DNA of 64,000 nt from Escherichia coli (GTDB lineage: Bacteria > Pseudomonadota > Gammaproteobacteria > Enterobacterales > Enterobacteriaceae): the NCBI RefSeq assembly GCF_024298765.1, contig NZ_CP101210.1; one strand, given 5' to 3'. Below are positions 189 through 64,000 of the stretch, one piece after another. The notes beneath the pieces are model-generated. The model did not search any database. It was not told the origin of the DNA and was given only the letters and a program-made list of their open reading frames with translations. The position numbers and the translations under genes are program-made. The first letter of the stretch is position 1, and each line of letters begins with the position of its first letter.

Positions 189-209
189 TTCAGGCCCATT
201 GAGGATACC

Positions 210-9264: not shown

Positions 9265-9266
9265 AG

Positions 9267-30011: not shown

Positions 30012-30050
30012 CAGTGAGTTGGTAACTGTTAAGCCAAGGGCGGTAGCGTG
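30012..30050 (+). promoter_or_regulatory. JUMPstart element with ops (GGCGGTAGCGTG, 30039-30050) in O-antigen operon leader
   Basis: cagtgagttggtaactgttaagccaagggcggtagcgtg; same 39-bp architecture as the wza leader copy. Confidence 0.85.
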
Positions 30051-30085
30051 TGTTTTGATCCTACCCACGTAATATGGACACAGGC

Positions 30086-31146: not shown

Positions 31147-31237
31147 CTCTGACTGAGAGTTTACTCACTTAGCCGCGTGTCCACTATTGCTGGGTAAGAT
31201 CATTTTTCTCTCAATCCTCATGATAAAGGAGGTTTAT

Positions 31238-32257: not shown

Positions 32258-32275
32258 TTTTTGGAATTTTGATAT

Positions 32276-33292: not shown

Positions 33293-33318
33293 GTATTTTT
33301 TAGAACAGGAAATGTAAA

Positions 33319-34440: not shown

Positions 34441-34442
34441 GC

Positions 34443-37352: not shown

Positions 37353-37355
37353 TAT

Positions 37356-38735: not shown

Positions 38736-39289
38736 GAATATTAAAAATTATTATAAGTGTATTGTTGTTTATAAAAAAGAAAAGAAAAAAAATACCGGAC
38801 TCAGCAATAATAAACTTAACAAGTCATGTGGATAAACATTCAGTAATTGGAAAGTGTTGTTATATAGGGAAAAATGTATATATAACTAAAAGTATCATTG
38901 GGAATTACACATCTATTGCAAATAATGTCTCAATTGGTCAAGGTGAACATAAGGTTGATGCAGTTAGTACAAGTTCGATGTTCTACGATAATGAATTCGA
39001 AGATTTAACACAAAACGATTGTATTATAGGTAATGATGTGTGGCTCGGTACAGGAGTTACTGTATTACGAGGGGTAAGAATTGGTGATGGTGCTATTATT
39101 GGTGCTAATGCCGTTGTCACAAAAAATATTCCAGATTATTGTATTGCGGTAGGAGTACCTGCGAAAGTAATCAAAAGAAGATTACCAGTAAATGTTACTG
39201 AAAAAATAAAAGAGACTAAATGGTGGAATGATGAATATGAAGTGGCGAAGGATAAAATTATTTGCTTAACAAATGAATTAAAGTTATGA
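38732..39289 (+). CDS. O-acetyltransferase, hexapeptide-repeat (LbH) family
   Basis: 185 aa; repeats such as [31 protein letters not shown]; 4-bp overlap with manB; AT-rich. Confidence 0.75.
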
Positions 39290-40728
39290 ACAAAAAAGAA
39301 ATAATTATCTTGCTTATAGCCAGAATTCTACAGATTCTCATTAGTTTATTCACAATGAGATTGATGACAACGATTTTAAGCAATGAGCAAATGGGGGAGT
39401 ATTATATTTTTTTAGCAATCTATATGTTGGCATCATTGGGTATAATTAATCCAATAGGACAATATGTGAATCGCAACACTTATTTATGGTGGAGAGAGGG
39501 AGTACTAACCCAATATATTGATCGATATATTAATTTTGTTTTGTGTTTTTCGCTTATTTATGTGATTTTGTATGGACTTGGTGAATGTTTGTTTAAAGGA
39601 ATAAATACACCATTTTGGATGTTATTCTGTTATTTATATATAGTATGTTTATCTCTAAACCAATTTCTATTACATACTTTAAATATCTTAAATTTTAAGA
39701 TAGTATTTTCCATTATGACGTTGATGACTTCTGTATTAAGTTTATCAGGGGCATATTTATTTATTGAATATAGCATAGCTAAACAAACTGTTAGTATATA
39801 TTACTGGGTTGCAGGAATCATAATTGGCAATTTTATTTCTTTATGTATATGCGTTGTATATCTGAGATGTAGAAATACGTTCCAAAAATCAATTCCTAAA
39901 TCTATCAATGTAAGCATAAAAGAAGTTTTTAATTTTTGCTGTCCAATTATGATAACAACTTTGTTCATTTGGTTTCAAAGCTCTGGATATCGATTTGCTG
40001 TCGAGCAAATGTTTGGCTTAAAGTTTTTAGGTATACTAGCTGTATGTTTTGCTGTGTCAGGGCAAATAATGTCAGTGATTGAGTCTTTAGTGACACAGAT
40101 ATTTCAACCAACATTATTTAAGCATATGGATAATGTCAAAAATAGAAAGCAACATCTAGATTTTTATATTAATGAAAATATAGCAATTTATGCTAGTGTA
40201 TTATTTTTTTGTACTTTCTTTATGCGCGAAATATTTTTGGTTTTAGTTGACAATAAATATCTTCCTTACTTCTATATAGGTATAATAGCTTTATGGAGTG
40301 AATTTTTTAGGATATCAACCAATACTTTGTCTTTAGTGTTTTTTTGCGAAAAGAAAATGAAGGTGGGAATTTTTCCTTATTTAATTGGCTCATTAAGTCT
40401 GGCTTTTTCGATCGTCTTGTTCAGGTTGTTAAATGTAAATTTGGGTATTTTAATAGCTTTTGCTATTGGGATTGCACAATTGGCCTCCTTTATCGTTTGC
40501 TTAATTACGGTAAAAAAAATCTCTTATTTTAAAATAAATTCCATCTTCTTAATGAAGAGGATAATAATAGTACTACCTTCTGTGTTAATTGCCCATTGCA
40601 TTCCTAAATTTGAAATGATTAATGCTGTCCATTTTATTATCATTTTCGGTGTCGGTTTATTTTACTTAATCTCTTTAGTTACTTCTTTTATGTTTATTAA
40701 ACAACCAGGAGGTGTTTATGGAAGTTAA
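39286..40728 (+). CDS. wzx: O-antigen flippase (Wzx-like polytopic membrane protein)
   Basis: 480 aa, very hydrophobic with about 12 predicted TM segments; position in O-antigen cluster. Confidence 0.7.
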   Translation: MNKKEIIILLIARILQILISLFTMRLMTTILSNEQMGEYYIFLAIYMLASLGIINPIGQYVNRNTYLWWREGVLTQYIDRYINFVLCFSLIYVILYGLGECLFKGINTPFWMLFCYLYIVCLSLNQFLLHTLNILNFKIVFSIMTLMTSVLSLSGAYLFIEYSIAKQTVSIYYWVAGIIIGNFISLCICVVYLRCRNTFQKSIPKSINVSIKEVFNFCCPIMITTLFIWFQSSGYRFAVEQMFGLKFLGILAVCFAVSGQIMSVIESLVTQIFQPTLFKHMDNVKNRKQHLDFYINENIAIYASVLFFCTFFMREIFLVLVDNKYLPYFYIGIIALWSEFFRISTNTLSLVFFCEKKMKVGIFPYLIGSLSLAFSIVLFRLLNVNLGILIAFAIGIAQLASFIVCLITVKKISYFKINSIFLMKRIIIVLPSVLIAHCIPKFEMINAVHFIIIFGVGLFYLISLVTSFMFIKQPGGVYGS

Positions 40729-41569
40729 AATTATTGGGGGACTTGGCAATCAGATGTTTCAGTATGCAACTGCATTTGCTATTGCAAAAAGAACTCATCA
40801 AAATTTGACTGTTGATATATCTGATGCAGTAAAATATAAAACTCATCCATTAAGATTAGTTGAATTATCTTGTAGTTCAGAATTTGTAAAAAAAGCATGG
40901 CCATTTGAAAAATACTTATTTTCCGAAAAAATCCCACATTTCATGAAAAAAGAAATGTTCAGAAAGCATTACGTTGAGAAAAGTTTAGAGTATGATCCAG
41001 ATATTGATACTAAAAGTATAAATAAAAAAATCGTCGGTTATTTTCAAACTGAAAAATATTTTAAGGAATTTAGGCATGAGTTGATAAAGGAATTTCAACC
41101 TAAAACTAAGTTTAATAGTTATCAAAATGAATTGCTTAATTTAATTAAAGAAAATGATACTTGTTCATTGCATATTAGAAGAGGTGATTATGTTTCCAGT
41201 AAAATAGCAAATGAAACTCATGGTACATGTAGTGAAAAATATTTTGAACGTGCCATTGATTATTTGATGAATAAAGGTGTTATTAATAACAAAACCCTTC
41301 TCTTCATTTTTTCTGATGATATAAAGTGGTGCAGGGAAAATATATTTTTTAATAATCAAATATGTTTTGTTCAAGGTGATGCTTATCATGTTGAATTAGA
41401 TATGTTGCTTATGAGTAAATGTAAAAATAATATAATTTCAAATAGTTCTTTCAGTTGGTGGGCTGCTTGGTTAAATGAAAATAAAAATAAAACAGTAATT
41501 GCTCCGAGTAAATGGTTTAAGAAAGATATTAAACATGATATTATTCCCGAATCGTGGGTAAAATTATGA
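40718..41569 (+). CDS. Alpha-1,2-fucosyltransferase (GT11 family)
   Basis: Start at ATG 40718 with AGGAGG RBS; GT11 signature HIRRGDYV; N-terminal GGLGNQMFQYA; co-located with GDP-fucose genes. Confidence 0.8.
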   Translation: MEVKIIGGLGNQMFQYATAFAIAKRTHQNLTVDISDAVKYKTHPLRLVELSCSSEFVKKAWPFEKYLFSEKIPHFMKKEMFRKHYVEKSLEYDPDIDTKSINKKIVGYFQTEKYFKEFRHELIKEFQPKTKFNSYQNELLNLIKENDTCSLHIRRGDYVSSKIANETHGTCSEKYFERAIDYLMNKGVINNKTLLFIFSDDIKWCRENIFFNNQICFVQGDAYHVELDMLLMSKCKNNIISNSSFSWWAAWLNENKNKTVIAPSKWFKKDIKHDIIPESWVKL

Positions 41570-42432
41570 TGGAAGATACAAAAGAATTAATAACAGTAAT
41601 AATGCCTGTTTATAATGCGGAAAAATACATATATGAATCTATAAAAAGTATTTTGGTGCAGTCATATTCTAATTTTGAGTTCATCATTATTAATGATGGC
41701 TCAAAAGATTCTTCTGGAAAAATTATTGAAAACTTTCTCGATGATACGAGGATACGATATATAAATCGTGAAAATAAAGGTTTGGTCTTCACTCTGAATG
41801 AAGCTATTTCGTTATCAAGAGGAAATTATATTGCTCGAATGGATGCTGATGATATTTCACATCCCCTACGATTAGAAAAGCAACTAAATTTTCTACTAGA
41901 AAATCCAGATATAGCCGTAGTTGGGTGTTCTTCTTTTATTATTGACCAAAATTCTAAGGTTATAAATACGCGAAAACCACCTTTGACACCTTTAGTAAAT
42001 AAAGCATTGCTATTTTTTGGCCCAACATTAACTCATCCATCAGTGATGTTTAATAAAATACTACTTGGAGATCAGCTTTACTACAGTGATAAATATCTTC
42101 ATGTTGAAGATTATGACTTGTGGTTGAGGTTAATTAATCAATACAAAATAGCTAATATCAAAGATGTTCTTTTTTACTATCGAATTAATGAGTCAGGTGT
42201 TTCACAGACTAATTTATTTGAACAAAAAATTAATGCTGCTAAAGCATATAGTGAAATTAAATATGATGGTAAGTATAAAGACTTACTGGAAAAGTTAGAA
42301 GTCATACACCTGAGACATGAAATGGAGAAAAGTAAGGTCTTTCAGGCCGTATTATATATATTATTAAAGTATGAACATGATTCATTATTATTTTTAAAAT
42401 TAGGATATATATTACGATGGTTAATAAAATAA
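41554..42432 (+). CDS. Glycosyltransferase, GT2 family
   Basis: 292 aa; VIMPVYNAEKYI...IIINDGSKDSS and ARMDADD (DXD-type) motifs. Confidence 0.8.
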   Translation: MGKIMMEDTKELITVIMPVYNAEKYIYESIKSILVQSYSNFEFIIINDGSKDSSGKIIENFLDDTRIRYINRENKGLVFTLNEAISLSRGNYIARMDADDISHPLRLEKQLNFLLENPDIAVVGCSSFIIDQNSKVINTRKPPLTPLVNKALLFFGPTLTHPSVMFNKILLGDQLYYSDKYLHVEDYDLWLRLINQYKIANIKDVLFYYRINESGVSQTNLFEQKINAAKAYSEIKYDGKYKDLLEKLEVIHLRHEMEKSKVFQAVLYILLKYEHDSLLFLKLGYILRWLIK

Positions 42433-43316
42433 AAATAGCACTAATAAGTACAGAAAAAGCTAATCTTCCTGAAATTGAAGCCTATAAGGAGTATTTTTCG
42501 GAGCCATTTGATGTCTCTGTTGTTAATAAAAATGATGATTTAAGTTGTTATGATGTTTTATGGTACTTTATGGGGTTTAAAGGTAATAAAATAAACTCTA
42601 AACAGTTCTTGATTCATGAGTTTTCCTCAATTTCAGTACCACCATTTCCAAAAATAAAAAACGTTATCAAGAAATTTATTTTGCCTAAACCTAATTTGAG
42701 GGTTTTTTTAAATAAATCAGTGCAACAACAATTCGATTTTAATGATAGAGTTCCTTTTTGTTACCGAGATATGGGCGTCAATTATAAACCAGTAGTTGAA
42801 AGAAATAATAAAAAATATGATATATTATATGTGGGGGCAATTACTGGTAGAAAACTAGATGATGCATTAAATTTGATTTTGTCATATAAATTAGATTGTA
42901 AAATCGCAATTCTTGGTAAAGTGCCAGAAAAGTTCAAAGAAAAATATAAAAATACTGATGTTATATTTCTTGGGCAAGTTCCTTATAATCGGGTAGCCAC
43001 CATTATTGCAGAATCTAACTTGTGTTTAAATTGGATTCCGAATATTTATCCATATAACATGCAGACATCAACAAAATTCTTAGAGTATCTGGCACAAAAT
43101 AAACAAATAATATCGAATAGCTACCCTTGGGTTGACTCTTATTGTCAACAGCATAATATTGACTATATTAATGTCAATGATTCCAATTCTATTCGACAAG
43201 CATTGAACTCAGTCATAATCCAAAAATCAACACATATCCCCCCAAGTTGGCGAGAGGTTATTATGAATAGCGGGATAGAGAATCACATTAAATCATATTT
43301 TGAGGTAACAAAATGA
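42417..43316 (+). CDS. Putative glycosyltransferase (family not recognisable from motifs)
   Basis: 299 aa, AT-rich, 16-bp overlap with upstream GT2 gene; C-terminal region loosely resembles a GT-B C-terminal domain. Confidence 0.5.
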   Translation: MVNKIKIALISTEKANLPEIEAYKEYFSEPFDVSVVNKNDDLSCYDVLWYFMGFKGNKINSKQFLIHEFSSISVPPFPKIKNVIKKFILPKPNLRVFLNKSVQQQFDFNDRVPFCYRDMGVNYKPVVERNNKKYDILYVGAITGRKLDDALNLILSYKLDCKIAILGKVPEKFKEKYKNTDVIFLGQVPYNRVATIIAESNLCLNWIPNIYPYNMQTSTKFLEYLAQNKQIISNSYPWVDSYCQQHNIDYINVNDSNSIRQALNSVIIQKSTHIPPSWREVIMNSGIENHIKSYFEVTK

Positions 43317-44356
43317 TTTCTTACGGAGTGCTATTTCTCTTCTCTTATATCAATGCTGTACTTCAGAAGAGAGTAACCGTAACGTTACTATTTTTTATAA
43401 TGATAATTGTTTCTTTCTTTAAATATAATATTGGATTTGATTGGGGGAATTATCATGAAATTTACCTTCAGCAAGGAGATGGCTTTTTTTTTAATGAACC
43501 CCTATTTTCTCTCTTAATTATTCTTTCCAATAAGGTTGCATTAGAATATAAATATTTTATATCAATGTGCTCATTAATTACACTGATTGTTTATTATTCT
43601 GGTATGCGGTGTTTTGCAAGAGATATAAAAGAGTTAGCTTTAGCATTAACTTATTTTGTTGTCTCTTATTGCTACTTTGAACACTTTAATATTATTCGAC
43701 AAGCTTTAGCAATCGCTTTATTCTTTTATAGTTGGAAATATATTATTGAGACTAACTTTATAATGTATAGCCTCTTTATTTTTTTTGCATCTATGATTCA
43801 TGCGGCGGCGGTTGTATTGCTCCCATTTTACTTTTTCCTTAGAATTGATAATTTTAAACCTGTATATTATGGTATAGTGGTCTTATTTATTATTATTGTT
43901 GTTAGATTCGATATTAACAGCATCCTTTTAAGTTCACTTAATTTATTTAAAAATTTCGATTTTGTAGCCAGGTATTTAGCAAATTCAACAGATTTGGCTG
44001 ACTTTGCATCAAAAAAATCTGATCTTGGATTAAGTAAGATATACCCAGCAATTATATTTGTTTTCTGTTGTTTTTGGGGAGGGATTAGGTTAGAGTCTCG
44101 AAGAGACTATGTTTTTTTTAATGCTGGCTTTATTGCAATAACTTTACTGCTCTTAAGCTATCAGGTTGATATTTTGTTTAGATTTTTCTCTTTTTTTGAG
44201 ACTTCATTTGTCTTGTTGTACTGCATTATTTTTTCTGGTTTTAATAAAAAAAGTAAAATTATACTGCATATGGTTAATTTAATTGTATATACGGTAATGA
44301 CATTTAACATGTTATCAGTAATGGGCTTGATTCCTTATGAATCATACATTTTCTAA
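43313..44356 (+). CDS. wzy: O-antigen polymerase (Wzy-like polytopic membrane protein)
   Basis: 347 aa, highly hydrophobic and Phe/Ile/Leu-rich, very AT-rich; 4-bp overlap with upstream gene. Confidence 0.6.
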   Translation: MISYGVLFLFSYINAVLQKRVTVTLLFFIMIIVSFFKYNIGFDWGNYHEIYLQQGDGFFFNEPLFSLLIILSNKVALEYKYFISMCSLITLIVYYSGMRCFARDIKELALALTYFVVSYCYFEHFNIIRQALAIALFFYSWKYIIETNFIMYSLFIFFASMIHAAAVVLLPFYFFLRIDNFKPVYYGIVVLFIIIVVRFDINSILLSSLNLFKNFDFVARYLANSTDLADFASKKSDLGLSKIYPAIIFVFCCFWGGIRLESRRDYVFFNAGFIAITLLLLSYQVDILFRFFSFFETSFVLLYCIIFSGFNKKSKIILHMVNLIVYTVMTFNMLSVMGLIPYESYIF

Positions 44357-44837
44357 TAAGCTTCCCTCAGTTGTTTGTTGTATAGTAATATTTTAATATC
44401 ATTGCAGTGTGTAATTATTGTCAATAAGCTAATTTCTGTTATTTGCATGATTAATTCAGTTTGCAATGCTTGATGTAAAAAGATAAAGTGCACCCGTTTA
44501 CACAATGTTTATTTTGGCATGTCAAGTATAAGTTCTAAATAATACGTTTGTAATGTTTAGCATGTAAACATAATAGTTAAATAATATTAAACATGCAACA
44601 TGCCATTTGTTATTCTAATAAAACATATGTGTTGTGTGAATTATTTAATGTGGAAAGTGGTTGCGTATTATAAATTGTTCATATTGACGTTTAAGTCTTT
44701 TATAACTCCATGCTTGCATGTTAAAAACATTTCGCTATATATTCGCTATATATTATGGTAGGTGGTTTTTATCTAGGCAGATTTGTCTATTTAACTCTAA
44801 ATCTAAATCGCTTAAGAAAGTATGAGTAGGAGTATTT

Positions 44838-45857
44838 ATGGCTATTCTCGTTACAGGTGGTGCTGGTTATATTGCATCACATACTATACTGAGTTTGATA
44901 GAGCAGGGTAATGAAGTAATTATTATTGATAATTTATCAAATTCATATTATGATTCGTTATTGAAAATAAAAGAGATTACTGGATGTGATTGTCTTTTTT
45001 ATAAAGGAGATATCCTTGACAAAAAACTCTTGCTAAAAATATTTGATGAAAATAATATCACTGCTGTGATGCATTTTGCTGGTGCAAAGTCTGTAAGTGA
45101 ATCTGTTATCAGACCTTTGCAATACTATCGAAATAATGTCTCTGGCACTTTTTCTTTAGTTGAGGCAATGGAGGAGTCTGGTGTAGAAAATTTAATATTT
45201 AGCTCTTCAGCAACTGTCTATGGTGAGCCAAAGATTATTCCTGTGAATGAAAGTTGTGCTATAGGTGGTACTACAAATCCGTATGGAACGTCCAAGTTAT
45301 TTGTAGAGAACTTTTTGCGGGATTATTCTAAGGCATCCCCTAATTTTAAAACTATAGTATTAAGATATTTTAACCCTATCGGTGCTCACTCATCTGGAAA
45401 AATAGGTGAAGATCCTAACGGAATTCCGAATAACTTGATGCCCTTTATATGCCAGGTTGCTATCGGTAAACAAAAAACGCTCAAGATCTACGGAAATGAT
45501 TATCCTACTAAAGATGGTACTGGGATTCGCGATTATATTCATGTTATGGATCTTGCTGAAGGTCATGTTGCTGCATTAAATAATATTAATCAAGGAGCTA
45601 ATTATAGAGTTTACAACCTTGGAACAGGAATTGGATACTCTGTGTTGGAATTATTAGAAGCATTTCAGAAAGTTACAACTCGGAGAGTTCCCTATGTTTT
45701 TACTAAAAGGCGTTCAGGTGATATCGCTGAATGTTGGTCTGATCCTACCAAAGCGTATGAAGAATTAGGATGGAAAGCAAGGCGAGGGTTAGAAGATATG
45801 ATTCGTGATGCATGGAATTGGCAGCAAAAAAATCCAAATGGATTTAAGAAAGTTTAA
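44838..45857 (+). CDS. UDP-hexose 4-epimerase (GalE/Gne family), last O-antigen gene
   Basis: 339 aa; TGGAGYIASHT, NPYGTSK, IYGNDYPTKDGTGIRDYIHV; paralogous to the 31238 gene. Confidence 0.85.
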   Translation: MAILVTGGAGYIASHTILSLIEQGNEVIIIDNLSNSYYDSLLKIKEITGCDCLFYKGDILDKKLLLKIFDENNITAVMHFAGAKSVSESVIRPLQYYRNNVSGTFSLVEAMEESGVENLIFSSSATVYGEPKIIPVNESCAIGGTTNPYGTSKLFVENFLRDYSKASPNFKTIVLRYFNPIGAHSSGKIGEDPNGIPNNLMPFICQVAIGKQKTLKIYGNDYPTKDGTGIRDYIHVMDLAEGHVAALNNINQGANYRVYNLGTGIGYSVLELLEAFQKVTTRRVPYVFTKRRSGDIAECWSDPTKAYEELGWKARRGLEDMIRDAWNWQQKNPNGFKKV

Positions 45858-45963
45858 TAAAAATGAAACGATATATTAAGTGTTAGCTTGTTTAATTAAT
45901 TTAAAGTTAATATTATTTACATTAATATGTAATGAAAGTGATATTCTATGACAGGAGTAAACA

Positions 45964-47370
45964 ATGTCAAAGCAACAGATCGGCGTAGTCGGTATGGCAG
46001 TGATGGGGCGCAACCTTGCGCTCAACATCGAAAGCCGTGGTTATACCGTCTCTATTTTCAACCGTTCCCGTGAAAAGACGGAAGAAGTGATTGCCGAAAA
46101 TCCAGGCAAGAAACTGGTTCCTTACTATACGGTGAAAGAGTTTGTTGAATCTCTGGAAACGCCTCGTCGCATCCTGTTAATGGTGAAAGCAGGTGCAGGC
46201 ACGGATGCTGCTATTGATTCCCTCAAGCCATACCTCGATAAAGGTGACATCATTATTGATGGTGGTAATACCTTCTTCCAGGATACCATTCGTCGTAACC
46301 GTGAGCTTTCTGCCGAAGGTTTTAACTTCATTGGTACCGGTGTCTCCGGTGGTGAAGAAGGCGCGCTGAAAGGTCCTTCCATCATGCCTGGTGGGCAGAA
46401 AGAAGCCTATGAACTGGTTGCACCGATCCTGACCAAAATCGCCGCCGTTGCTGAAGATGGCGAACCGTGCGTTACCTATATTGCTGCCGATGGCGCGGGT
46501 CACTATGTGAAGATGGTTCACAACGGTATTGAATACGGTGATATGCAACTGATTGCTGAAGCCTATTCTCTCCTGAAAGGCGGCCTGAATCTTTCTAACG
46601 AAGAACTGGCACAGACCTTTACCGAGTGGAATAACGGTGAACTGAGCAGCTACCTGATCGACATCACCAAAGACATCTTCACTAAAAAAGATGAAGACGG
46701 TAACTACCTGGTTGATGTGATCCTGGATGAAGCGGCTAACAAAGGTACCGGTAAATGGACCAGCCAGAGCGCGCTGGATCTCGGAGAACCGCTGTCGCTG
46801 ATTACCGAGTCTGTGTTTGCACGTTATATCTCTTCTCTGAAAGATCAGCGTGTTGCAGCGTCTAAAGTTCTCTCTGGTCCGCAAGCGCAGCCTGCTGGCG
46901 ACAAGGCTGAGTTCATCGAAAAAGTTCGTCGTGCTCTGTATCTGGGCAAAATCGTTTCTTACGCCCAAGGCTTCTCTCAGCTGCGTGCTGCGTCTGAAGA
47001 GTACAACTGGGATCTGAACTACGGCGAAATCGCGAAGATTTTCCGTGCTGGCTGCATCATCCGTGCGCAGTTCCTGCAGAAAATCACCGATGCTTATGCC
47101 GAAAATCCGCAGATCGCTAACCTGCTGCTGGCTCCGTACTTCAAGCAAATTGCCGATGACTACCAGCAGGCGCTGCGTGATGTCGTTGCTTATGCAGTAC
47201 AGAACGGTATCCCGGTTCCGACCTTCGCGGCTGCGGTTGCCTATTATGACAGCTACCGCGCCGCAGTTCTGCCTGCAAACCTGATCCAGGCACAGCGTGA
47301 CTATTTCGGTGCGCATACTTATAAGCGCATTGATAAAGAAGGTGTGTTCCATACTGAATGGCTGGATTAA
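45964..47370 (+). CDS. gnd: 6-phosphogluconate dehydrogenase, decarboxylating
   Basis: 468 aa; N-terminal [19 protein letters not shown]-binding motif. Confidence 0.97.
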
Positions 47371-47395
47371 TCTGATTTAACCAACAATAAAATTG

Positions 47396-47429
47396 AGGCC
47401 CGGCGTATATTGCACCGGGCTTTTTTTTG
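47396..47429 (+). terminator. Rho-independent terminator after gnd
   Basis: GC hairpin GCCCGG...CCGGGC followed by a T8 run. Confidence 0.8.
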
Positions 47430-47609
47430 CCAAATATCTTATAGACTAAATTTCACTGCTTAATATTAACTTAATAAATATCAGCTATTCTTATAAAGAA
47501 AATCTGAATTGTTTTTCGTTGCGTTGACCATCTGACAACGTAGCGTTAAAACTTTTAACTCTTATCAGGATGCTAAAAACATCATGATTCACAGTTAAGT
47601 TAATTCTGA

Positions 47610-48785
<1,176 letters not shown>

Positions 48786-48927
48786 CATCCTGTTATCAGG
48801 GCGATTTTCGCCCTGATTGTCTTTTGTTACCTCCGCAATAATTCATTATTTTTATCACTTATCCTATAGCATTCACTAGGATTATCGCTAAACTATGCGG
48901 ACTTGGAAATTTCCGTCAGTTAGGGTA

Positions 48928-49908
48928 ATGATGAGAGTAGAAAATAATAATGTTTCTGGGCAAAACCATGACCCGGAACAGATTGATTTGATTGATTTAC
49001 TAGTGCAGTTGTGGCGTGGCAAGATGACAATCATCATTTCCGTCATTGTGGCTATTGCCCTGGCTATTGGATATTTGGCAGTAGCGAAGGAGAAATGGAC
49101 GTCAACAGCAATTATCACTCAGCCCGACGTGGGGCAAATTGCTGGCTATAACAATGCCATGAATGTTATCTATGGTCAGGCTGCACCGAAAGTATCGGAT
49201 TTACAGGAGACGTTAATTGGTCGCTTCAGTTCTGCATTCTCTGCATTAGCAGAAACGCTGGATAATCAGGAAGAACCAGAAAAACTTACCATCGAACCTT
49301 CTGTTAAGAACCAGCAATTACCATTGACAGTTTCTTATGTTGGGCAAACTGCAGAGGGAACACAAATGAAGTTGGCCCAATACATTCAGCAAGTTGATGA
49401 TAAAGTGAATCAAGAGCTAGAAAAGGATCTCAAGGACAACATTGCTCTGGGACGGAAAAACTTGCAGGACTCTTTAAGAACTCAGGAAGTAGTCGCGCAA
49501 GAGCAGAAAGATCTGCGTATCCTTCAGATTCAGGAAGCGTTGCAGTATGCGAATCAGGCGCAGGTGACAAAGCCACAGGTTCAGCAGACTGAAGATGTGA
49601 CACAAGATACGTTGTTCCTTTTGGGGAGCGAAGCGCTGGAGTCGATGATTAAGCATGAGGCGACCCGTCCGTTGGTGTTCTCACCAAACTACTATCAGAC
49701 TCGTCAAAACCTGCTGGATATCGAAAGCTTAAAAGTTGATGATCTTGATATTCATGCTTACCGTTATGTAATGAAACCGACGTTACCTATTCGTCGCGAT
49801 AGTCCGAAAAAGGCAATCACCTTGATTCTGGCGGTGCTACTGGGCGGCATGGTTGGCGCGGGGATTGTGCTGGGGCGTAATGCTCTGCGTAATTACAACG
49901 CGAAATAA
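48928..49908 (+). CDS. wzzB: O-antigen chain-length regulator (polysaccharide co-polymerase)
   Basis: About 326 aa from MMRVENNN (start ambiguous among 48895, 48928, 48931); TM near both termini. Confidence 0.9.
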   Translation: MMRVENNNVSGQNHDPEQIDLIDLLVQLWRGKMTIIISVIVAIALAIGYLAVAKEKWTSTAIITQPDVGQIAGYNNAMNVIYGQAAPKVSDLQETLIGRFSSAFSALAETLDNQEEPEKLTIEPSVKNQQLPLTVSYVGQTAEGTQMKLAQYIQQVDDKVNQELEKDLKDNIALGRKNLQDSLRTQEVVAQEQKDLRILQIQEALQYANQAQVTKPQVQQTEDVTQDTLFLLGSEALESMIKHEATRPLVFSPNYYQTRQNLLDIESLKVDDLDIHAYRYVMKPTLPIRRDSPKKAITLILAVLLGGMVGAGIVLGRNALRNYNAK

Positions 49909-49927
49909 TCTTTGCAGTTTTAAAGAA

Positions 49928-49998
49928 AACGGGCAGAGTGGTGACACCTTGCCCGTTTTTTTTTGCCGGATGCGACTACAACATCGCATCCGGTCAGT
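49928..49998. terminator. Convergent terminator region between wzzB (+) and hisI (-)
   Basis: Hairpin AACGGGCAG...TTGCCCGTT then T9 on plus strand; second hairpin CCGGATGCGA...TCGCATCCGG adjacent, serving the minus strand. Confidence 0.75.
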
Positions 49999-50005
49999 CC
50001 GCAAC

Positions 50006-50610
50006 TCACTGATGCCGTTTACGCAGGTTCTCAATCACCGTTGTTAAATCCAGATCCTGATCCTGCAACAATACCAGCAGGTGATACATCAAATCAGATG
50101 CCTCGTTAGTTAGTTCAAAGCGGTCATGTACCGTTGCTGCCAGTGCGGTTTCCACCCCTTCTTCGCCCACTTTCTGCGCAATGCGTTTGGTGCCGCTGGC
50201 ATACAGTTTGGCGGTATAGGAAGTTTCCGGGTCGGCAGATTTGCGTGCGGCGAGCAGTTGTTCCAGTTGATACAGGAACAGCCATTGGTGAGCGGTGTCG
50301 CCGAAGCAGCCGCTGGTGCCTTTGTGGCAGGTTGGTCCGATAGGATTCGCCAGTACCAGTAGCGTGTCGTTGTCGCAATCCGGGACAATACTCACTACGT
50401 TGAGGAAATTGCCCGACATTTCGCCTTTGGTCCACAGCCGTTGTTTAGTGCGCGAGAAGAAGGTGACTTTGCCGCTTTCGATGGTTTTGTCTAAAGCTTC
50501 CGGGTTCATATAGCCCAGCATTAGCACTTCGCCGGATACCGCGTGTTGTACAATCACCGGCATAAGTCCGTCGGTTTTTTCCCAGTCCAGTTCGCGACGT
50601 TGTTGTTCTG

Positions 50611-50617
<7 letters not shown>
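50006..50617 (-). CDS. hisI: Bifunctional phosphoribosyl-AMP cyclohydrolase / phosphoribosyl-ATP pyrophosphatase
   Basis: 203 aa; last gene of his operon. Confidence 0.95.
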
Positions 50618-56134
<5,517 letters not shown>

Positions 56135-56139
56135 GGCGA

Positions 56140-57039
56140 TCACTCCATCATCTTCTCAATCGGCAGGACCAGGATTGAACTGGCACCCAGCGCTTTCAGT
56201 TTTTCCATCGTTTCCCAGAACAGGGTTTCGCTACTGACCATGTGCATCGCTACACGCTGTTGGTCACCCGCCAGCGGCAGAATGGTTGGGCGTTCGGCAC
56301 CTGGCAGCAGGGCGATGACTTCATCCAGACGTTCGGTCGGTGCGTGCATCATGATGTATTTTGATTCGCGCGCCTGGATCACACCCTGAATACGGGTCAG
56401 CAGTTTGTCGATCAGTTGCTGTTTGGATTCTTCCATTTCGCCATCGCGCTGGATCAGGCAGGCTTTCGAGCGGTAGATAACTTCGACTTCGCGCAGGCCG
56501 TTTGCTTCCAGCGTGGCACCGGTGGAAACCAGATCGCAAATCGCATCCGCCAGTCCGGCACGCGGGGCGACTTCAACAGAACCGTTCAGTAAGCAGGATT
56601 TAAAAGAGATGCCTTTCTGGTCGAGATAACGCTTGAGCAGGTGAGGATAAGAGGTGGCGATACGTTTACCGTTTAAGGAGAGCGGGCCATCCCAGGCTTC
56701 ATCAACCGGCGTTGCCAGCGAAAGACGGCAGCCGCCGAAATCCAGACGACGCAGGGTAAAGTAGCGTGGATCTTCACCCTGGGCGCGGCGGTTAAGCAGC
56801 TCTTCTTCCAGCACGTTTTCGCCGATAATCCCGAGGTCAACCACGCCGTCCATTACCAGACCGGGAATGTCGTCGTCACGCACGCGCAGAATATCAATCG
56901 GCATGTTTTCTGCCATCGCGATCAGGCGCTGGGTGTGAAGATTGATTTTAATGCCACAGCGCGCCAGCAATTCACGTGAGTCATCACTTAAACGGCCGGA
57001 TTTCTGCATAGCTATGCGTAAACGAGTGTTGTCTGTCAT
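56140..57039 (-). CDS. hisG: ATP phosphoribosyltransferase
   Basis: Start taken at [15 protein letters not shown] (299 aa) within the 312-aa track ORF. Confidence 0.95.
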
Positions 57040-57084
57040 TTTCTTATTCCTCTTTAAACCTGTCTGAACCGTTATCAACCGCGC

Positions 57085-57120
57085 AATAAAAAAGCCCCCG
57101 GAAGGTGATCTTCCGGGGGC
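57085..57120 (-). terminator. his attenuator terminator hairpin
   Basis: GCCCCCGGAAG...CTTCCGGGGGC stem followed on the minus strand by a T-run; lies between hisL and hisG. Confidence 0.85.
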
Positions 57121-57184
57121 TTTCTCATGCGTTCATGTACCACTGGAAGATCTGAATGTCTTCCAGCACACATCGCCTGAAAGA

Positions 57185-57235
57185 CTAGTCAGGATGATGG
57201 TGATGATGGTGGTGTTTAAATTGAACGCGTGTCAT
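57185..57235 (-). CDS. hisL: his operon leader peptide (7 consecutive His codons)
   Basis: Minus-strand ORF ATG ACA CGC GTT CAA TTT AAA CAC CAC CAT CAT CAC CAT CAT CCT GAC TAG = MTRVQFKHHHHHHHPD. Confidence 0.95.
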   Translation of the reverse strand: MTRVQFKHHHHHHHPD

Positions 57236-57484
57236 AAAAGTCTCTGTGAATTTTTATTCAACTGATGTCTTTTAACCTAAACCACTTTCACGTTAGAAAG
57301 CAAGGGCTTTTTTATATATTTTATGGCAATGGATTTGTTTAATGAATGAGCGGGGAAAGGAGGGGGCTAAGAGGACTGTCCTCTAAGCTGACGGCACCAA
57401 AAATAGCGAAGCCTGGATTTTCGTCTCACTGACAATACCTTGATCTACAAACTAATTAATAAATAGTTAATTAACGCCCATCAT

Positions 57485-57502
57485 TGTACAATGAACTGTA
57501 CA
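57485..57502 (+). promoter_or_regulatory. yefM-yoeB operator: two TGTACA core motifs with 12-bp centre spacing
   Basis: cattgTACAatgaacTGTACAaaag immediately upstream of the yefM RBS; matches the recalled YefM/YoeB autoregulatory site architecture. Confidence 0.7.
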
Positions 57503-57517
57503 AAAGAGGAGATTGAC

Positions 57518-57769
57518 ATGCGTACAATTAGCTACAGCGAAGCGCGTCAGAATTTGTCGGCAACAATGATGAAAGCCGTTGAAGATCATGCCCCGATCCT
57601 TATTACTCGTCAGAATGGAGAGGCTTGTGTTCTGATGTCACTCGAAGAATACAACTCGCTGGAAGAGACGGCTTATCTACTGCGCTCCCCCGCTAACGCC
57701 CGGAGATTGATGGACTCAATCGATAGCCTGAAATCAGGCAAAGGAACAGAAAAGGACATTATTGAGTGA
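57518..57769 (+). CDS. yefM: Antitoxin YefM (Phd/YefM family)
   Basis: 83 aa from [13 protein letters not shown]; the track ORF begins 27 bp upstream. Confidence 0.95.
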
Positions 57770-58020
57770 AACTAATCTGGTCTGAGGAATCATGGGATGA
57801 TTATCTGTACTGGCAGGAAACAGATAAGCGAATTGTTAAAAAGATCAATGAACTTATCAAAGATACCCGCAGAACGCCATTTGAATGTAAGGGGAAGCCA
57901 GAACCCCTGAAACATAATTTGTCAGGTTTCTGGTCCCGACGCATTACAGAGGAGCACCGTCTGGTATACGCGGTTACCGACGATTCACTGCTCATTGCAG
58001 CATGTCGTTATCATTATTGA
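57766..58020 (+). CDS. yoeB: Toxin YoeB (ribosome-dependent mRNA interferase, RelE/ParE superfamily)
   Basis: 84 aa; 4-bp overlap with yefM. Confidence 0.95.
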
Positions 58021-58102
58021 ACAGATTCATTCATAGAATGAATTGTCAGTTTTGATACGCTAGCGTAGCCTTATAGATCTAAGGTGTATCAGGAGATAAC
58101 GG

Positions 58103-58927
58103 ATGAAAAAGGTCGCAATTGTCGGGTTAGGGTGGTTAGGCATGCCGCTGGCGATGTCACTTTCAGCGCGAGGCTGGCAAGTCACCGGGAGTAAAACCAC
58201 ACAAGATGGTGTCGAAGCGGCCCGAATGAGTGGCATTGATAGCTATCTGCTTCGCATGGAGCCTGAGTTAGTTTGCGATTCTGACGATCTGGATGCCCTG
58301 ATGGATGTCGATGCGCTGGTCATTACGCTTCCGGCACGTCGTAGCGGCCCCGGCGATGAGTTCTATTTACAAGCGGTACAAGAGTTAGTGGATAGCGCGC
58401 TGGCCCATCGTATTCCCCGCATTATTTTTACCAGCTCAACATCTGTCTATGGCGACGCGCAAGGCACGGTGAAAGAAACTACCCCGCGTAATCCGGTAAC
58501 CAACAGTGGACGAGTATTAGAAGAACTCGAAGACTGGCTGCACAATTTACCCGGTACTTCGGTCGATATTCTGCGTCTTGCGGGGCTGGTCGGACCGGGA
58601 CGTCATCCCGGACGCTTCTTTGCCGGAAAAACCGCGCCTGATGGTGAACATGGTGTTAATTTAGTCCATTTAGAAGATGTTATTGGCGCTATCACTCTGT
58701 TGTTACAGGCACCTAAAGGCGGACACATCTATAATATATGTGCGCCAGCTCACCCTGCGCGTAATGTTTTCTATCCGCAGATGGCCCGTTTACTGGGGCT
58801 GGAGCCTCCGCAGTTCAGAAATAGTCTGGACAGCGGCAAAGGTAAGATTATTGATGGCAGTCGGATTTGTAATGAACTGGGATTTGAATACCAGTATCCC
58901 GATCCGCTGGTAATGCCGCTGGAGTAA
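58103..58927 (+). CDS. yeeZ: NAD(P)-binding Rossmann-fold protein (epimerase/dehydratase-like)
   Basis: 274 aa; N-terminal VAIVGLGWLG. Confidence 0.85.
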   Translation: MKKVAIVGLGWLGMPLAMSLSARGWQVTGSKTTQDGVEAARMSGIDSYLLRMEPELVCDSDDLDALMDVDALVITLPARRSGPGDEFYLQAVQELVDSALAHRIPRIIFTSSTSVYGDAQGTVKETTPRNPVTNSGRVLEELEDWLHNLPGTSVDILRLAGLVGPGRHPGRFFAGKTAPDGEHGVNLVHLEDVIGAITLLLQAPKGGHIYNICAPAHPARNVFYPQMARLLGLEPPQFRNSLDSGKGKIIDGSRICNELGFEYQYPDPLVMPLE

Positions 58928-58972
58928 ACGATCACGCCAGCAGGACGCCGCATGCACTGCAAGGGGGCGTGT

Positions 58973-59902
58973 ATGAAACCACTGCTGGATGTGTTGATGA
59001 TCCTCGATGCCTTAGAAAAAGAAGGCAGTTTTGCGGCGGCGTCGGCCAAACTCTATAAGACGCCGTCCGCTCTGAGTTACACCGTTCACAAGCTGGAAAG
59101 CGACCTTAATATTCAATTGCTTGATCGTAGCGGTCACCGCGCTAAATTCACCCGTACCGGAAAAATGTTATTAGAGAAAGGGCGGGAAGTTCTGCATACC
59201 GTGCGAGAACTGGAAAAGCAGGCGATCAAACTGCATGAAGGCTGGGAAAACGAGCTGGTGATTGGCGTGGACGACACGTTTCCTTTTTCTCTGCTTGCGC
59301 CACTGATTGAAGCTTTTTATCAACATCATAGCGTGACGCGCCTGAAGTTTATCAATGGCGTACTCGGTGGTTCCTGGGATGCCCTGACTCAGGGGCGAGC
59401 GGATATTATTGTTGGCGCGATGCATGAGCCACCATCTTCCAGTGAGTTTGGTTTTTCACGGTTGGGCGATCTGGAACAAGTCTTTGCGGTCGCGCCTCAT
59501 CATCCGTTAGCCCTGGAAGAAGAGCCGTTAAACCGTCGTATTATTAAGCGATATCGGGCGATTGTGGTGGGGGATACTGCGCAGGCAGGCGCTTCTACGG
59601 CCTCACAACTTCTCGACGAACAAGAAGCCATTACCGTTTTCGATTTTAAAACCAAGCTGGAGCTGCAAATTAGCGGCCTCGGCTGCGGCTATTTACCCCG
59701 TTATCTGGCACAACGTTTTCTCGATAGTGGCGCGTTAATCGAGAAGAAAGTGGTCGCCCAAACTCTCTTTGAACCCGTCTGGATTGGCTGGAACGAACAG
59801 ACCGCAGGGCTTGCCAGCGGCTGGTGGCGGGATGAAATTTTAGCAAATAGTGCGATCGCCGGTGTTTATGCAAAATCTGATGACGGAAAATCAGCCATTT
59901 AA
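58973..59902 (+). CDS. yeeY: LysR-family transcriptional regulator
   Basis: Start taken at MKPLLDVL (309 aa); HTH N-terminus plus LysR substrate-binding domain. Confidence 0.85.
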   Translation: MKPLLDVLMILDALEKEGSFAAASAKLYKTPSALSYTVHKLESDLNIQLLDRSGHRAKFTRTGKMLLEKGREVLHTVRELEKQAIKLHEGWENELVIGVDDTFPFSLLAPLIEAFYQHHSVTRLKFINGVLGGSWDALTQGRADIIVGAMHEPPSSSEFGFSRLGDLEQVFAVAPHHPLALEEEPLNRRIIKRYRAIVVGDTAQAGASTASQLLDEQEAITVFDFKTKLELQISGLGCGYLPRYLAQRFLDSGALIEKKVVAQTLFEPVWIGWNEQTAGLASGWWRDEILANSAIAGVYAKSDDGKSAI

Positions 59903-59987
59903 AGAAAAATTATTATGACAAGCCTCTCATTCTCTTGTCATTTCCCCCCCATTTAGGCACAATGCGCCGCTGTCAAAAAATGACTAA

Positions 59988-60020
59988 AAACCGACGTTTC
60001 ATCAGCGTCGGTTATTTTTT
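59988..60020 (+). terminator. Rho-independent terminator after yeeY
   Basis: AACCGACG...CGTCGGTT hairpin followed by ATTTTTT. Confidence 0.7.
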
Positions 60021-60168
60021 GCTTCAAACCAATCATTCATACCAAGAGGCCGGGCTTCGTACCGGATAGATATTTACTAAAAATCGACAGTTGTTGTCGC
60101 TGAGGAATCCAAAAAAATGGGGCAATTTTTTGCTTACGCGACGGTTATCACCGTAAAGGAGAATGACC

Positions 60169-61527
60169 ATGTCGCATAACGTTACTCCAAACACCTCTCG
60201 CGTGGAATTGCGTAAAACGCTTACGTTAGTTCCGGTTGTAATGATGGGTCTTGCCTATATGCAGCCGATGACGCTGTTTGATACTTTTGGTATCGTTTCA
60301 GGCCTCACGGATGGTCATGTGCCGACAGCCTATGCGTTCGCATTGATTGCGATCCTGTTTACGGCTCTGAGCTACGGGAAACTGGTTCGCCGCTATCCTT
60401 CTGCTGGCTCTGCATACACTTACGCCCAGAAATCCATTAGCCCGACTGTCGGCTTTATGGTGGGTTGGTCTTCTCTGCTCGACTATCTGTTCGCGCCGAT
60501 GATCAACATTCTGCTGGCGAAAATCTATTTTGAAGCTCTGGTGCCTTCCATCCCATCGTGGATGTTTGTGGTGGCGCTGGTGGCCTTTATGACCGCCTTT
60601 AACCTGCGTAGTCTGAAATCCGTAGCGAACTTCAACACTGTAATCGTCGTGTTGCAGGTAGTGCTGATCGCGGTGATTCTGGGCATGGTTGTTTATGGCG
60701 TATTTGAAGGTGAAGGCGCTGGTACGCTGGCGAGCACTCGTCCGTTCTGGTCTGGCGATGCGCATGTTATCCCGATGATTACCGGGGCGACAATCCTGTG
60801 CTTCTCCTTTACCGGCTTTGACGGCATCAGCAACCTGTCGGAAGAAACCAAAGATGCAGAGCGCGTGATCCCGCGTGCGATTTTCCTGACCGCGCTGATT
60901 GGCGGCATGATCTTCATCTTTGCAACTTACTTCCTGCAGCTGTACTTCCCGGATATCTCTCGCTTTAAAGATCCGGATGCGTCACAGCCTGAAATCATGC
61001 TGTATGTTGCAGGTAAAGCATTCCAGGTTGGTGCGCTGATCTTCTCCACCATTACCGTACTGGCGTCTGGTATGGCGGCGCACGCAGGCGTTGCGCGACT
61101 GATGTACGTAATGGGTCGTGACGGCGTATTCCCGAAAAGCTTCTTCGGTTATGTTCACCCGAAATGGCGTACTCCGGCAATGAACATCATCCTGGTTGGC
61201 GCGATTGCCCTGCTGGCAATCAACTTCGACCTGGTAATGGCTACGGCGCTGATCAACTTTGGTGCGTTGGTGGCGTTCACCTTCGTTAACCTGTCGGTCA
61301 TCTCGCAGTTCTGGATCCGTGAGAAGCGTAACAAGACGCTGAAAGATCACTTCCAGTATCTGTTCCTGCCGATGTGTGGTGCGCTGACCGTTGGTGCGCT
61401 GTGGGTTAACCTGGAAGAAAGCTCAATGGTTCTGGGTCTGATCTGGGCTGCTATCGGTCTGATTTACCTGGCTTGCGTCACCAAGAGCTTCCGTAACCCG
61501 GTTCCGCAGTACGAAGACGTAGCATAA
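60169..61527 (+). CDS. plaP: Putrescine importer (APC-family amino acid/polyamine permease)
   Basis: Start taken at [10 protein letters not shown] (452 aa); 12-TM APC transporter. Confidence 0.9.
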
Positions 61528-61545
61528 TCATCTTTTCTAATAATC

Positions 61546-61583
61546 AACCGGAGTCGAATGAATATTTGGCTCCGGTTTTTTTA
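61546..61583 (+). terminator. Rho-independent terminator after plaP
   Basis: AACCGGAGTCGAATGAATATTTGGCTCCGGTT hairpin followed by a T-run. Confidence 0.75.
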
Positions 61584-61705
61584 TTCTTTTTTATCGAAAT
61601 CCTCATTAATAACCATTTGTTCTAATTTAGAGAATTTGGTTATTGGTCTGCATTCCACCAGTCATGAATAATTTCCTCATTAACATTCATCTGGTTAATT
61701 AATTT

Positions 61706-62764
61706 ATGTTTTCAATGATATTAAGCGGGCTAATTTGTGGTGCTCTGCTGGGATTTGTCATGCAGCGTGGGCGTTTTTGCCTGACAGGTGGTTTTCGCGA
61801 TATGTATATCGCGAAAAATAATCGCATGTTTTACGCCTTGCTGATTGCAATTTCGGTACAAAGCGTGGGGGTTTTTGCGTTAATTCAGGCGGGCCTACTG
61901 ACTTACGAAGCCGGGGCGTTCCCGTGGCTTGGTACTGTTATAGGTGGGTATCTTTTCGGGCTGGGAATTGTTCTGGCGGGTGGATGTGCCACCGGGACCT
62001 GGTATCGCGCGGGTGAGGGATTGATCGGCAGTTGGATCGCGCTTTTCACTTATATGGTGATGAGTGCGGTGATGCGTTCTCCACACGCCAGTGGTTTAAA
62101 TCAAACCTTGCAGCACTACACTACTGAACATAACTCTATTGCTGATACTTTTAATTTGTCTGTGTGGCCGTTGGTTGCCGTTTTGCTGGTGATAACGCTC
62201 TGGGTGGTGATGAAAGAGTTGAAGAAGCCAAAACTCAAAGTCGCGACCTTACCGCCGCGCCGAGCCGGGATCGCTCATATTCTGTTTGAAAAACGCTGGC
62301 ATCCCTTTGTCACAGCTGTACTCATCGGTTTGATTGCGCTTTTAGCCTGGCCCCTGAGTGAAGCAACCGGACGTATGTTTGGGTTAGGCATCACTTCCCC
62401 AACGGCCAATATTCTGCAATTTCTGGTCGCGGGTGACGTGAAATACATTAACTGGGGCGTTTTCCTGGTGTTAGGGATCTTCGTGGGGTCATTTATTGCC
62501 GCCAAAGCGAGCCGTGAGTTCCGCGTTCGCGCTGCTGATGCACAAACAACATTACGTAGCGGGTTAGGTGGTGTACTGATGGGCTTCGGTGCCAGCATTG
62601 CAGGTGGTTGCTCTATCGGTAATGGACTGGTCATGACTGCAATGATGACCTGGCAGGGCTGGATTGGCCTTGTATTTATGATTCTCGGAGTCTGGACTGC
62701 GTCCTGGCTTGTGTATGTTCGACCGCAGCGTAAGGCGCGACTGGCAACTGCTGCGGCAAATTAA
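61706..62764 (+). CDS. yeeE: YeeE/YedE-family inner membrane transporter (thiosulfate uptake-type)
   Basis: 352 aa; internal duplication with two GGCxxG-type motifs (GGCATGTWYRAGEG and GGCSIGNG). Confidence 0.85.
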   Translation: MFSMILSGLICGALLGFVMQRGRFCLTGGFRDMYIAKNNRMFYALLIAISVQSVGVFALIQAGLLTYEAGAFPWLGTVIGGYLFGLGIVLAGGCATGTWYRAGEGLIGSWIALFTYMVMSAVMRSPHASGLNQTLQHYTTEHNSIADTFNLSVWPLVAVLLVITLWVVMKELKKPKLKVATLPPRRAGIAHILFEKRWHPFVTAVLIGLIALLAWPLSEATGRMFGLGITSPTANILQFLVAGDVKYINWGVFLVLGIFVGSFIAAKASREFRVRAADAQTTLRSGLGGVLMGFGASIAGGCSIGNGLVMTAMMTWQGWIGLVFMILGVWTASWLVYVRPQRKARLATAAAN

Positions 62765-62777
62765 GTAAGGTGTAAAG

Positions 62778-63005
62778 ATGGCGATTAAAAAGCTGGATGT
62801 GGTGACGCAGGTCTGTCCGTTTCCACTCATAGAAGCAAAAGCAGCACTGGCAGAAATGGCCAGCGGCGATGAGTTGGTAATTGAGTTTGATTGCACCCAG
62901 GCAACTGAAGCAATCCCACAGTGGGCGGCAGAAGAAGGACATGCCATCACCGATTATCAGCAGATTGGCGATGCAGCGTGGAGCATCACCGTTCAAAAAG
63001 CCTGA
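62778..63005 (+). CDS. yeeD: TusA-like sulfurtransferase
   Basis: 75 aa; conserved CPFP motif (QVCPFPLIEAK); immediately downstream of yeeE. Confidence 0.9.
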   Translation: MAIKKLDVVTQVCPFPLIEAKAALAEMASGDELVIEFDCTQATEAIPQWAAEEGHAITDYQQIGDAAWSITVQKA

Positions 63006-63016
63006 CTCAACATTGT

Positions 63017-63040
63017 CCTCCGCCGTACCAGCGGCGGAGG
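63017..63040. terminator. Bidirectional terminator hairpin between yeeD (+) and sbcB (-)
   Basis: CCTCCGCCG tacca GCGGCGGAGG perfect inverted repeat between convergent stop codons. Confidence 0.7.
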
Positions 63041-63047
63041 CTTCAAA

Positions 63048-64000
63048 TTAGACGATCTCTTCCGCGTACTGCCAAAGCGCTTTTAACAGCGCCACTTTCT
63101 CTTTGTCATCGGCATACTGTTGTGCCAGCATCTGCAATTCATCAGCGTAGCCCTGCAAAAACTCTGGCGTGAAGACCTGGCGGCGGTGCTCAAGCCAGCG
63201 TTGCTGCTCGGCATAATCCAGCGTCCCCGGGAAGTTGCGCGCCCGATAATTGAACAACAGTTTTTCAATTCGTTTATCAACAAAAGTGATATCCAGTGCC
63301 GGTAAATTACGCGGCTCGGTTTCCAGCACAATTTTCATTGCTGCACGATCGGCGTCACTGAAAAAGCCGTTATAAAGCTGTGCATCCACGTTATCTGAAG
63401 GCGTAAACGGTTCGGCTTCCGCGAATATCGCCACCACTTTTTCACGCACTTGCGGATTTTCACGCAGAATTTTTAGGTTATCGAGGCAATGCTGACGATT
63501 AATTCCCAGTCGGTCGGCATCTTCCGGGCGTAGCGTATTCGCCTGGGCCAGTACCGGACATTTATTGATGTGCACCAGCTTAATCGGAACGGCGGCGTTA
63601 TCGCCAAGATCGGCTTTTGCGGTATATAAACGCTCGCGCAATGTGTCGCTATCCAGCTCCAGTAATGGCGAAATGTCTCCTGCCAAATCCACCATAATTA
63701 CGGCATTGCGATTTTCAGGATGCCACGCCAGCGGTGCCACCCAGCTGGTATTGCCGCGCCATGCCCCAAACATTCCGGAAACGTGAACCAGGGGTTTCAT
63801 CTGCGGAACATCAATCAACGCCATCAGTTTGTGTTTATTACGATGGGTAAAGAGATATTCAAACAGACGTGGCTGACGCGTTTTTACCAGTTTCGCCATC
63901 GCAATAGTGGCGTACACATCAGCCATCGCATCGTGGGCGTTGCTATGTTCAATTCCATTCGCTTTGGTTAAATGCTCAAGGCGAAAGCTCGGTAGACCGT
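63048..64000 (-). CDS. sbcB: Exodeoxyribonuclease I, C-terminal part (N-terminus beyond window end)
   Basis: Minus-strand frame open to the window edge; ...MADVYATIAMAKLVKTRQPRLFEYLF... through ...LKALWQYAEEIV*; the track start 63926 is an internal Met. Confidence 0.85.
   Translation of the reverse strand, partial: GLPSFRLEHLTKANGIEHSNAHDAMADVYATIAMAKLVKTRQPRLFEYLFTHRNKHKLMALIDVPQMKPLVHVSGMFGAWRGNTSWVAPLAWHPENRNAVIMVDLAGDISPLLELDSDTLRERLYTAKADLGDNAAVPIKLVHINKCPVLAQANTLRPEDADRLGINRQHCLDNLKILRENPQVREKVVAIFAEAEPFTPSDNVDAQLYNGFFSDADRAAMKIVLETEPRNLPALDITFVDKRIEKLLFNYRARNFPGTLDYAEQQRWLEHRRQVFTPEFLQGYADELQMLAQQYADDKEKVALLKALWQYAEEIV

Follow-up and report, generated by a model that had tools for sequence, protein, structure and literature searches.

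Is the small gene pair between hisL and yeeZ in this 64,000-nucleotide stretch of the E. coli chromosome (hereafter the window) simply the yefM-yoeB type II toxin-antitoxin (TA) operon, and, if it is intact, does that word extend from the reading frames to the activity of the toxin? The system is among the best characterised of its type (crystal structures and ribosome complexes are available, and the operator has been mapped), and one more E. coli genome with an intact copy adds nothing new. Judged by its sequence, the locus is almost certainly the known chromosomal operon, expected to work as it does in K-12, and it offers nothing new in structure or mechanism. No observation contradicts this identification, and the one caveat concerns function. 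The only unusual point of the locus is a rare replacement of Gly41 by Cys (G41C) in the toxin. This allele, and the structure of the locus as a presence/absence cassette, are minor additions. The value of the analysis is modest: the annotation of the window is confirmed, a cassette of about 650 bp that is either present or absent is shown, and a rare toxin variant is flagged.

The gene pair and its protein families

According to the sequence and the list of open reading frames (ORFs), yefM runs for 83 codons from the ATG at 57518 to the TGA at 57767-57769, and yoeB for 84 codons from the GTG at 57766 to the TGA at 58018-58020, with no internal stop or frameshift in either frame. The antitoxin gene comes first, the toxin gene lies directly downstream on the same strand, and the two share the four bases GTGA (57766-57769). 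The original prediction had proposed an 83-aa YefM and an 84-aa YoeB with a 4-bp overlap, and every coordinate that it gave is borne out; it had also named a frameshift or stop within either ORF as the observation that would count against it, and re-examination turned up neither. A sequencing error is unlikely to have hidden a frameshift, since the same bases are found in the complete genomes listed. Among the matches listed, 18 RefSeq complete E. coli genomes are 100% identical to the window over 57079-58102, with yefM and yoeB annotated, the latter as an intact gene.

Where does the antitoxin begin? In the mechanical ORF list, yefM opens at an ATG further upstream (57491), which would give a protein of 92 aa. 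This longer frame is rejected, and the 83-aa reading preferred, because the transcription start mapped by primer extension lies downstream of that ATG (PMC1802561). Expressed YefM begins at the second ATG (PMC1802561).

Both proteins fall squarely within known families. YefM matches the Phd/YefM antitoxin family of Pfam (PF02604, 96.8 bits against a cut-off of 29.8), which makes it a member of that family, and the NCBIfam equivalog NF008499 (186.6 bits, cut-off 121). YoeB matches the YoeB toxin family (PF06769, 142.2 bits, cut-off 27), which places it in the YoeB/Txe family with the RNase fold of the RelE superfamily, and the Txe/YoeB equivalog TIGR02116 (130.7 bits, cut-off 51.8). The comparison with characterised YefM and YoeB that had been suggested as a check gave 83 of 83 identical residues for YefM against chain A of PDB 2A6Q (E = 1.8e-49) and 83 of 84 for YoeB against chain E (E = 1.9e-55), the sole mismatch being at position 41. 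YoeB matches the YoeB chains of 2A6R, 2A6S, 4V8X and the ribosome complexes with codes beginning 6O at the same 83/84. In a residue-by-residue alignment to the crystallised protein, Glu46, Arg65, His83 and Tyr84 are all present in the YoeB of the window. Arg65 and Tyr84 were reportedly assigned a catalytic role by Kamada and Hanaoka in 2005. Glu46 and His83 are catalytic residues of YoeB (PMC3814384, PMC6821326). "Intact" is thus shown, at the level of sequence, for the reading frame and the catalytic residues of the toxin.

Table 1. Coordinates of the yefM-yoeB locus, its regulatory elements and the remaining content of the window.
Feature	Position	Strand	Basis and remarks
asmA	1-2063		annotated E. 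coli DNA alignment
yegH to wcaM	2336-27503		annotated E. coli DNA alignment
O-antigen epimerase gene	27647-28642		annotated E. coli DNA alignment
galF	28885-29778		annotated E. coli DNA alignment
Degraded IS3-family element	30057-31202	minus	
O128 cluster	31203-45949		annotated E. coli DNA alignment
gnd to sbcB	45949-64000		annotated E. coli DNA alignment
yefM-yoeB indel unit (promoter, operator, both genes)	57374-58025	+	O157:H7 NE92 alignment; presence counts
-35 hexamer TAGTTA of the yefM-yoeB promoter (pyy)	57464-57469	+	sequence; PMC7730913; identical in K-12
L (long) operator palindrome TCATTGTACAATGA, primary YefM site	57481-57494	.	core TGTACA at 57485-57490; footprint in PMC1802561; identical in K-12
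-10 hexamer TACAAT, inside the L palindrome	57487-57492	+	sequence; PMC7730913
S (short) operator repeat, core TGTACA	57497-57502	.	surrounds the transcription start; PMC1802561, PMC7730913
Shine-Dalgarno AGAGGAG	57505-57511	+	6 nt before the yefM ATG; sequence; PMC1802561
yefM	57518-57769	+	antitoxin and autorepressor, 83 aa; 100% identity with K-12 YefM
yoeB	57766-58020	+	84-aa toxin, GTG start; 83/84 identical to the K-12 protein
yoeB codon 41, TGT (Cys); GGT (Gly) in K-12	57886-57888	+	rare allele
AT-rich hairpin, then GUCAGUUUUG (short U run)	58026-58042	+	RNA fold; just past the yoeB stop; outside the indel unit

The regulatory region

The operator follows the published description closely. 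In K-12, the long (L) repeat is defined as 5'-TCATTGTACAATGA-3' and the short (S) repeat as another TGTACA at a distance of 12 bp (PMC1802561). In the window, the L sequence is a perfect 14-bp palindrome that holds the first TGTACA core, and the second core follows at 12 bp centre to centre, so that both positions and the spacing named in the original prediction are correct. The arrangement TGTACA-N6-TGTACA occurs once in the 64-kb window, on both strands searched, against an expectation of 0.00 (none of 100 dinucleotide-preserving shuffles had the motif).

In K-12, the transcription start was mapped by primer extension with the yefM ATG at +21, and the ribosome binding site lies 6 bp from this ATG (Kedzierska et al., PMC1802561). 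Derived from that figure, the transcription start in the window is base 57498, the G of the second TGTACA. The DNase I footprint of YefM and of YefM-YoeB covers the -10 box and its flanks (PMC1802561). A 2020 study assigned pyy the -10 TACAAT and the -35 TAGTTA with a spacer of 17 bp, and described the L repeat as spanning the whole -10 and the S repeat as flanking the start site, such that bound YefM-YoeB excludes RNA polymerase (PMC7730913). The weaker -35 box accounts for pyy being a weaker promoter than pat (PMC7730913).

The L and S repeats, the -10 and the -35 are identical to those of K-12 base for base, and the earlier description of the operator as intact is therefore supported. The only difference from K-12 nearby is at 57478, where the window has C and K-12 has T; this base of the promoter spacer precedes the L palindrome by 3 bp and is within the flanks of the published footprint. 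A scan of 57079-58102 for sigma-70 promoter and terminator consensus sequences missed the real promoter of yefM, because only 3 of the 6 bases of its -35 agree with the consensus, a miss that fits the weak -35 published for pyy (PMC7730913). (All that the same scan returned was a promoter-like site and a terminator-like site, both within yoeB on the minus strand; these are attributed to chance, being no more than the shuffles give.)

The chromosomal setting

The window is a piece of E. coli chromosome with a colanic-acid cluster and an O128-type O-antigen cluster. Around the TA pair the genes stand in K-12 order, with hisG and hisL on the minus strand, followed by yeeZ, yeeY, yoeI, plaP, tsuA, tsuB and sbcB; the order hisG-hisL / yefM-yoeB-yeeZ-yeeY is annotated both in K-12 and in strain MRY15-131. 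On the minus strand, hisL occupies 57185-57235, and Rfam places the His leader at 57086-57209 (131.7 bits). Since hisL and yefM are divergent, with start codons 282 bp apart, it was fair to describe the module as abutting the his promoter.

The 1024 bp from 57079 to 58102 differ from K-12 MG1655 at nine positions, and both operator repeats (L and S), both promoter hexamers, the ribosome binding site and both start codons are free of changes. Of the nine differences, four are coding (G41C and three synonymous changes), one is the promoter-spacer base, and four are other intergenic or leader bases. G41C is the only non-synonymous change.

The similarity to MRY15-131, a strain with the O1 antigen, extends further. 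From 56840 to 60380 (inside hisG to plaP) the two sequences are base-for-base identical, whereas to the left of 56840, through the his operon and gnd, there are 7 to 35 differences per 500 bp. This change from identity to divergence indicates a putative recombination breakpoint inside hisG, beside the O-antigen region.

How unusual is the toxin?

The identification of the locus as yefM-yoeB, with all its parts matching K-12, was sound; what the original prediction missed is the replacement at position 41 of YoeB, and its "intact" is accordingly not extended here to activity. Does G41C weaken or alter the toxin, whether by lower affinity for the ribosome, by lower stability, or by introducing a cysteine that is redox-sensitive or open to modification? 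Such an effect is unlikely on balance, but the substitution is unusual and its place in the protein looks well suited to matter.

Several observations favour an effect. Position 41 lies in the loop between alpha2 and beta2 of YoeB, where the neighbouring residues Phe39, Glu40, Lys42, Gly43 and Lys44 contact helix H69 of the 23S rRNA, protein S12, h18 and C519 of the 16S rRNA and the decoding centre (PMC3814384, PMC6821326). Glycine is strongly conserved at this position, being found in 139 (93%) of 150 aligned sequences, with Cys in four, Glu in three, Ser and Val in one each and a gap in two; these 150 were the best representatives of 50%-identity clusters from a library of 1.8 billion proteins, and are thus diverse. 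The allele is also rare. It was counted with a 55-nt megablast query centred on the variant base, which seeds only on genomes that carry the T; the query hit 21 of the 5426 complete E. coli genomes, each at 100% identity, and the allele is thus in about 0.5% of the 4216 that carry the module. It is moreover the sole non-synonymous change among the four coding differences from K-12.

On the other hand, cysteine is the commonest alternative at this position. Three of the four homologues with Cys41 are full length with Glu46, Arg65, His83 and Tyr84 intact, and cysteine is therefore tolerated in nature, to judge by these sequences. Neither of the two ribosome-structure papers names Gly41 itself as a contact ("Gly41" and "G41" have no mentions in PMC3814384 or PMC6821326), and in genomes from many hosts the allele persists with yefM and the operator both intact. 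The G41C protein is presumed to be about as active as that of K-12.

If G41C did alter the toxin, this lineage would carry an attenuated or functionally drifting TA pair and not a fully active one, and the locus would be a natural case of a chromosomal toxin tuned or disarmed by a point mutation while its antitoxin and operator stayed intact. In either event, this infrequent natural allele, which changes a conserved residue of the toxin, could serve to probe how important the glycine of the alpha2-beta2 loop is.

Presence and absence among E. coli genomes

The module is present in 4216 of the 5426 complete E. coli genomes; in the remaining 1210 (22%) it is absent and hisL and yeeZ are kept. 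Comparison with O157:H7 strain NE92 defines the unit that comes and goes. Homology with NE92 stops after 57373 and resumes at about 58026, leaving 652 bp in between (the right boundary is accurate to about 2 bp only), and the cassette so defined ends 5 bp past the yoeB stop codon. In its place, NE92 has about 210 bp of unrelated REP-like sequence (segment ~675-885), which on reading holds two putative REP-type palindromic units. The left junction of the cassette is straddled by a 7-bp inverted repeat, AGAGGAC-T-GTCCTCT (57370-57384), which could be due to chance or could be a trace of cassette gain or loss. A literature search found nothing specific on how yefM-yoeB is distributed over the E. 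coli population.

Just outside the cassette on the right is an AT-rich hairpin, with a folding energy of -14 kcal/mol for a context of 64 nt (z = -2.27). The terminator scan made no call at this hairpin, and alignment shows that it is kept in O157:H7, which lacks the TA module. It could act as a weak terminator; alternatively, it could be part of the upstream region of yeeZ.

That the locus is a decayed or chance pair of ORFs beside coincidental TGTACA repeats is next to impossible: no observation speaks for it, and against it stand the full-length identity or near-identity of both products to crystallised proteins, a paired TGTACA motif for which chance predicts no occurrence, and the retention of the locus in 4216 genomes, with at least 97.6% identity in the records that were sampled along the ranking.

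The rest of the window

Does the window hold any recognisable TA or defence module besides yefM-yoeB? The first suggestion was that it does not, and at the level of annotation transfer this statement held, the rest of the sequence mapping to annotated E. coli genes concerned with neither TA nor defence (Table 1). A search with Rfam found no type I TA RNA in the window. In MRY15-131, a RelE/ParE-family toxin with a helix-turn-helix (HTH) antitoxin lies between asmA and yegH (at 9166-9784 of its segment); the corresponding interval of the window, 2064-2336, has no match to this pair and holds an unrelated 273-bp spacer with no ORF of 32 aa or more. Two features that are extra relative to the comparator genomes, the epimerase gene and the IS3-family element, were considered as TA or defence candidates, and neither is one.

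The IS3-family element consists of a 102-aa orfA-like ORF and a shortened, 251-aa orfB-like ORF. It sits between a JUMPstart (30012-30050) and the first gene for the O128 O antigen, and is absent from the O128 strain 504239. Rfam matches at gathering level were obtained for naRNA4, which is REP-derived (23398-23468, minus strand), for the algC RNA upstream of cpsG (18878-18927, plus strand), for STnc240 upstream of yoeI/plaP (59948-60022, plus strand) and for a JUMPstart element upstream of wza (4362-4400, plus strand).

How the operon would work

The mechanism proposed here is carried over from work on the K-12 locus (PMC1802561, PMC7730913, PMC3814384, PMC6821326). The weak sigma-70 promoter, with its -35 TAGTTA and -10 TACAAT, would give rise to a bicistronic yefM-yoeB mRNA, on which translation of yoeB is probably coupled to that of yefM through the GTGA overlap, as the anatomy of the junction suggests. 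In K-12, the operon is transcriptionally autorepressed by YefM, and more strongly in the presence of YoeB; repression is due primarily to the YefM dimer, with YoeB as corepressor in a YefM2-YoeB complex (PMC1802561). The same autorepression, with the same enhancement by YoeB, is inferred for the locus in the window because the YefM protein and the operator are identical to those of K-12. The YefM dimer would bind the L palindrome and then the S repeat, covering the -10 and the transcription start and keeping RNA polymerase off, and YoeB, as part of the complex, would tighten this binding.

The complex would also hold the toxin in check. K-12 YoeB alone is toxic through ribosome-dependent cleavage of mRNA and is neutralised by YefM (PMC1802561, PMC3814384), one folded C-terminus of which covers the ribonuclease site (PMC1802561); YefM would presumably mask the active site here as well. 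Overproduction of the Lon protease activates YoeB-dependent mRNA cleavage (PMC1802561), and YoeB in its free form binds to the A site of the ribosome and cleaves mRNA (PMC3814384, PMC6821326). Once YefM is depleted, with Lon implicated, the freed YoeB of the window would likewise be expected to enter the A site and to cut the mRNA there by means of Glu46, Arg65, His83 and Tyr84, bringing translation to a halt.

Relation to known systems

How does the locus compare with other members of its family? Other solved pairs are those of Staphylococcus aureus (6L8E) and Mycobacterium tuberculosis (RelJK 3OEI, 6N90), which share the Pfam families and the fold class (toxin matches at E = 1e-23 to 1e-30, antitoxin matches at about 1e-13 to 1e-15). 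These are distant in sequence and are not the same orthologue, and their operators and oligomeric states differ (PMC7544224).

Axe-Txe, from the Enterococcus faecium plasmid pRUM, is a homologous pair with TGTACA cores at the same 12-bp spacing and the same -10 TACAAT (PMC7730913). It is carried on a plasmid, however, its L repeat occupies the spacer of the promoter instead of the -10, its -35 is stronger, and it has the additional promoters pat2 and paxe and is less tightly repressed (PMC7730913). The locus in the window has the geometry of pyy, not that of pat.

The closest known system is YefM-YoeB of E. coli K-12 (b2017/b4539; PDB 2A6Q, 2A6R, 2A6S, 4V8X, 6OTR), found in the same species at the same chromosomal site with the same gene order, and the original assessment of the pair as a known system agrees with this match in proteins, gene order, overlap, operator and genomic position. 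The window differs from K-12 by G41C in YoeB, the three synonymous changes, the base at 57478 and the four other intergenic or leader bases, whereas YefM, both operator repeats (L and S), both promoter hexamers, the GTGA overlap and the ribosome binding site are identical in the two.
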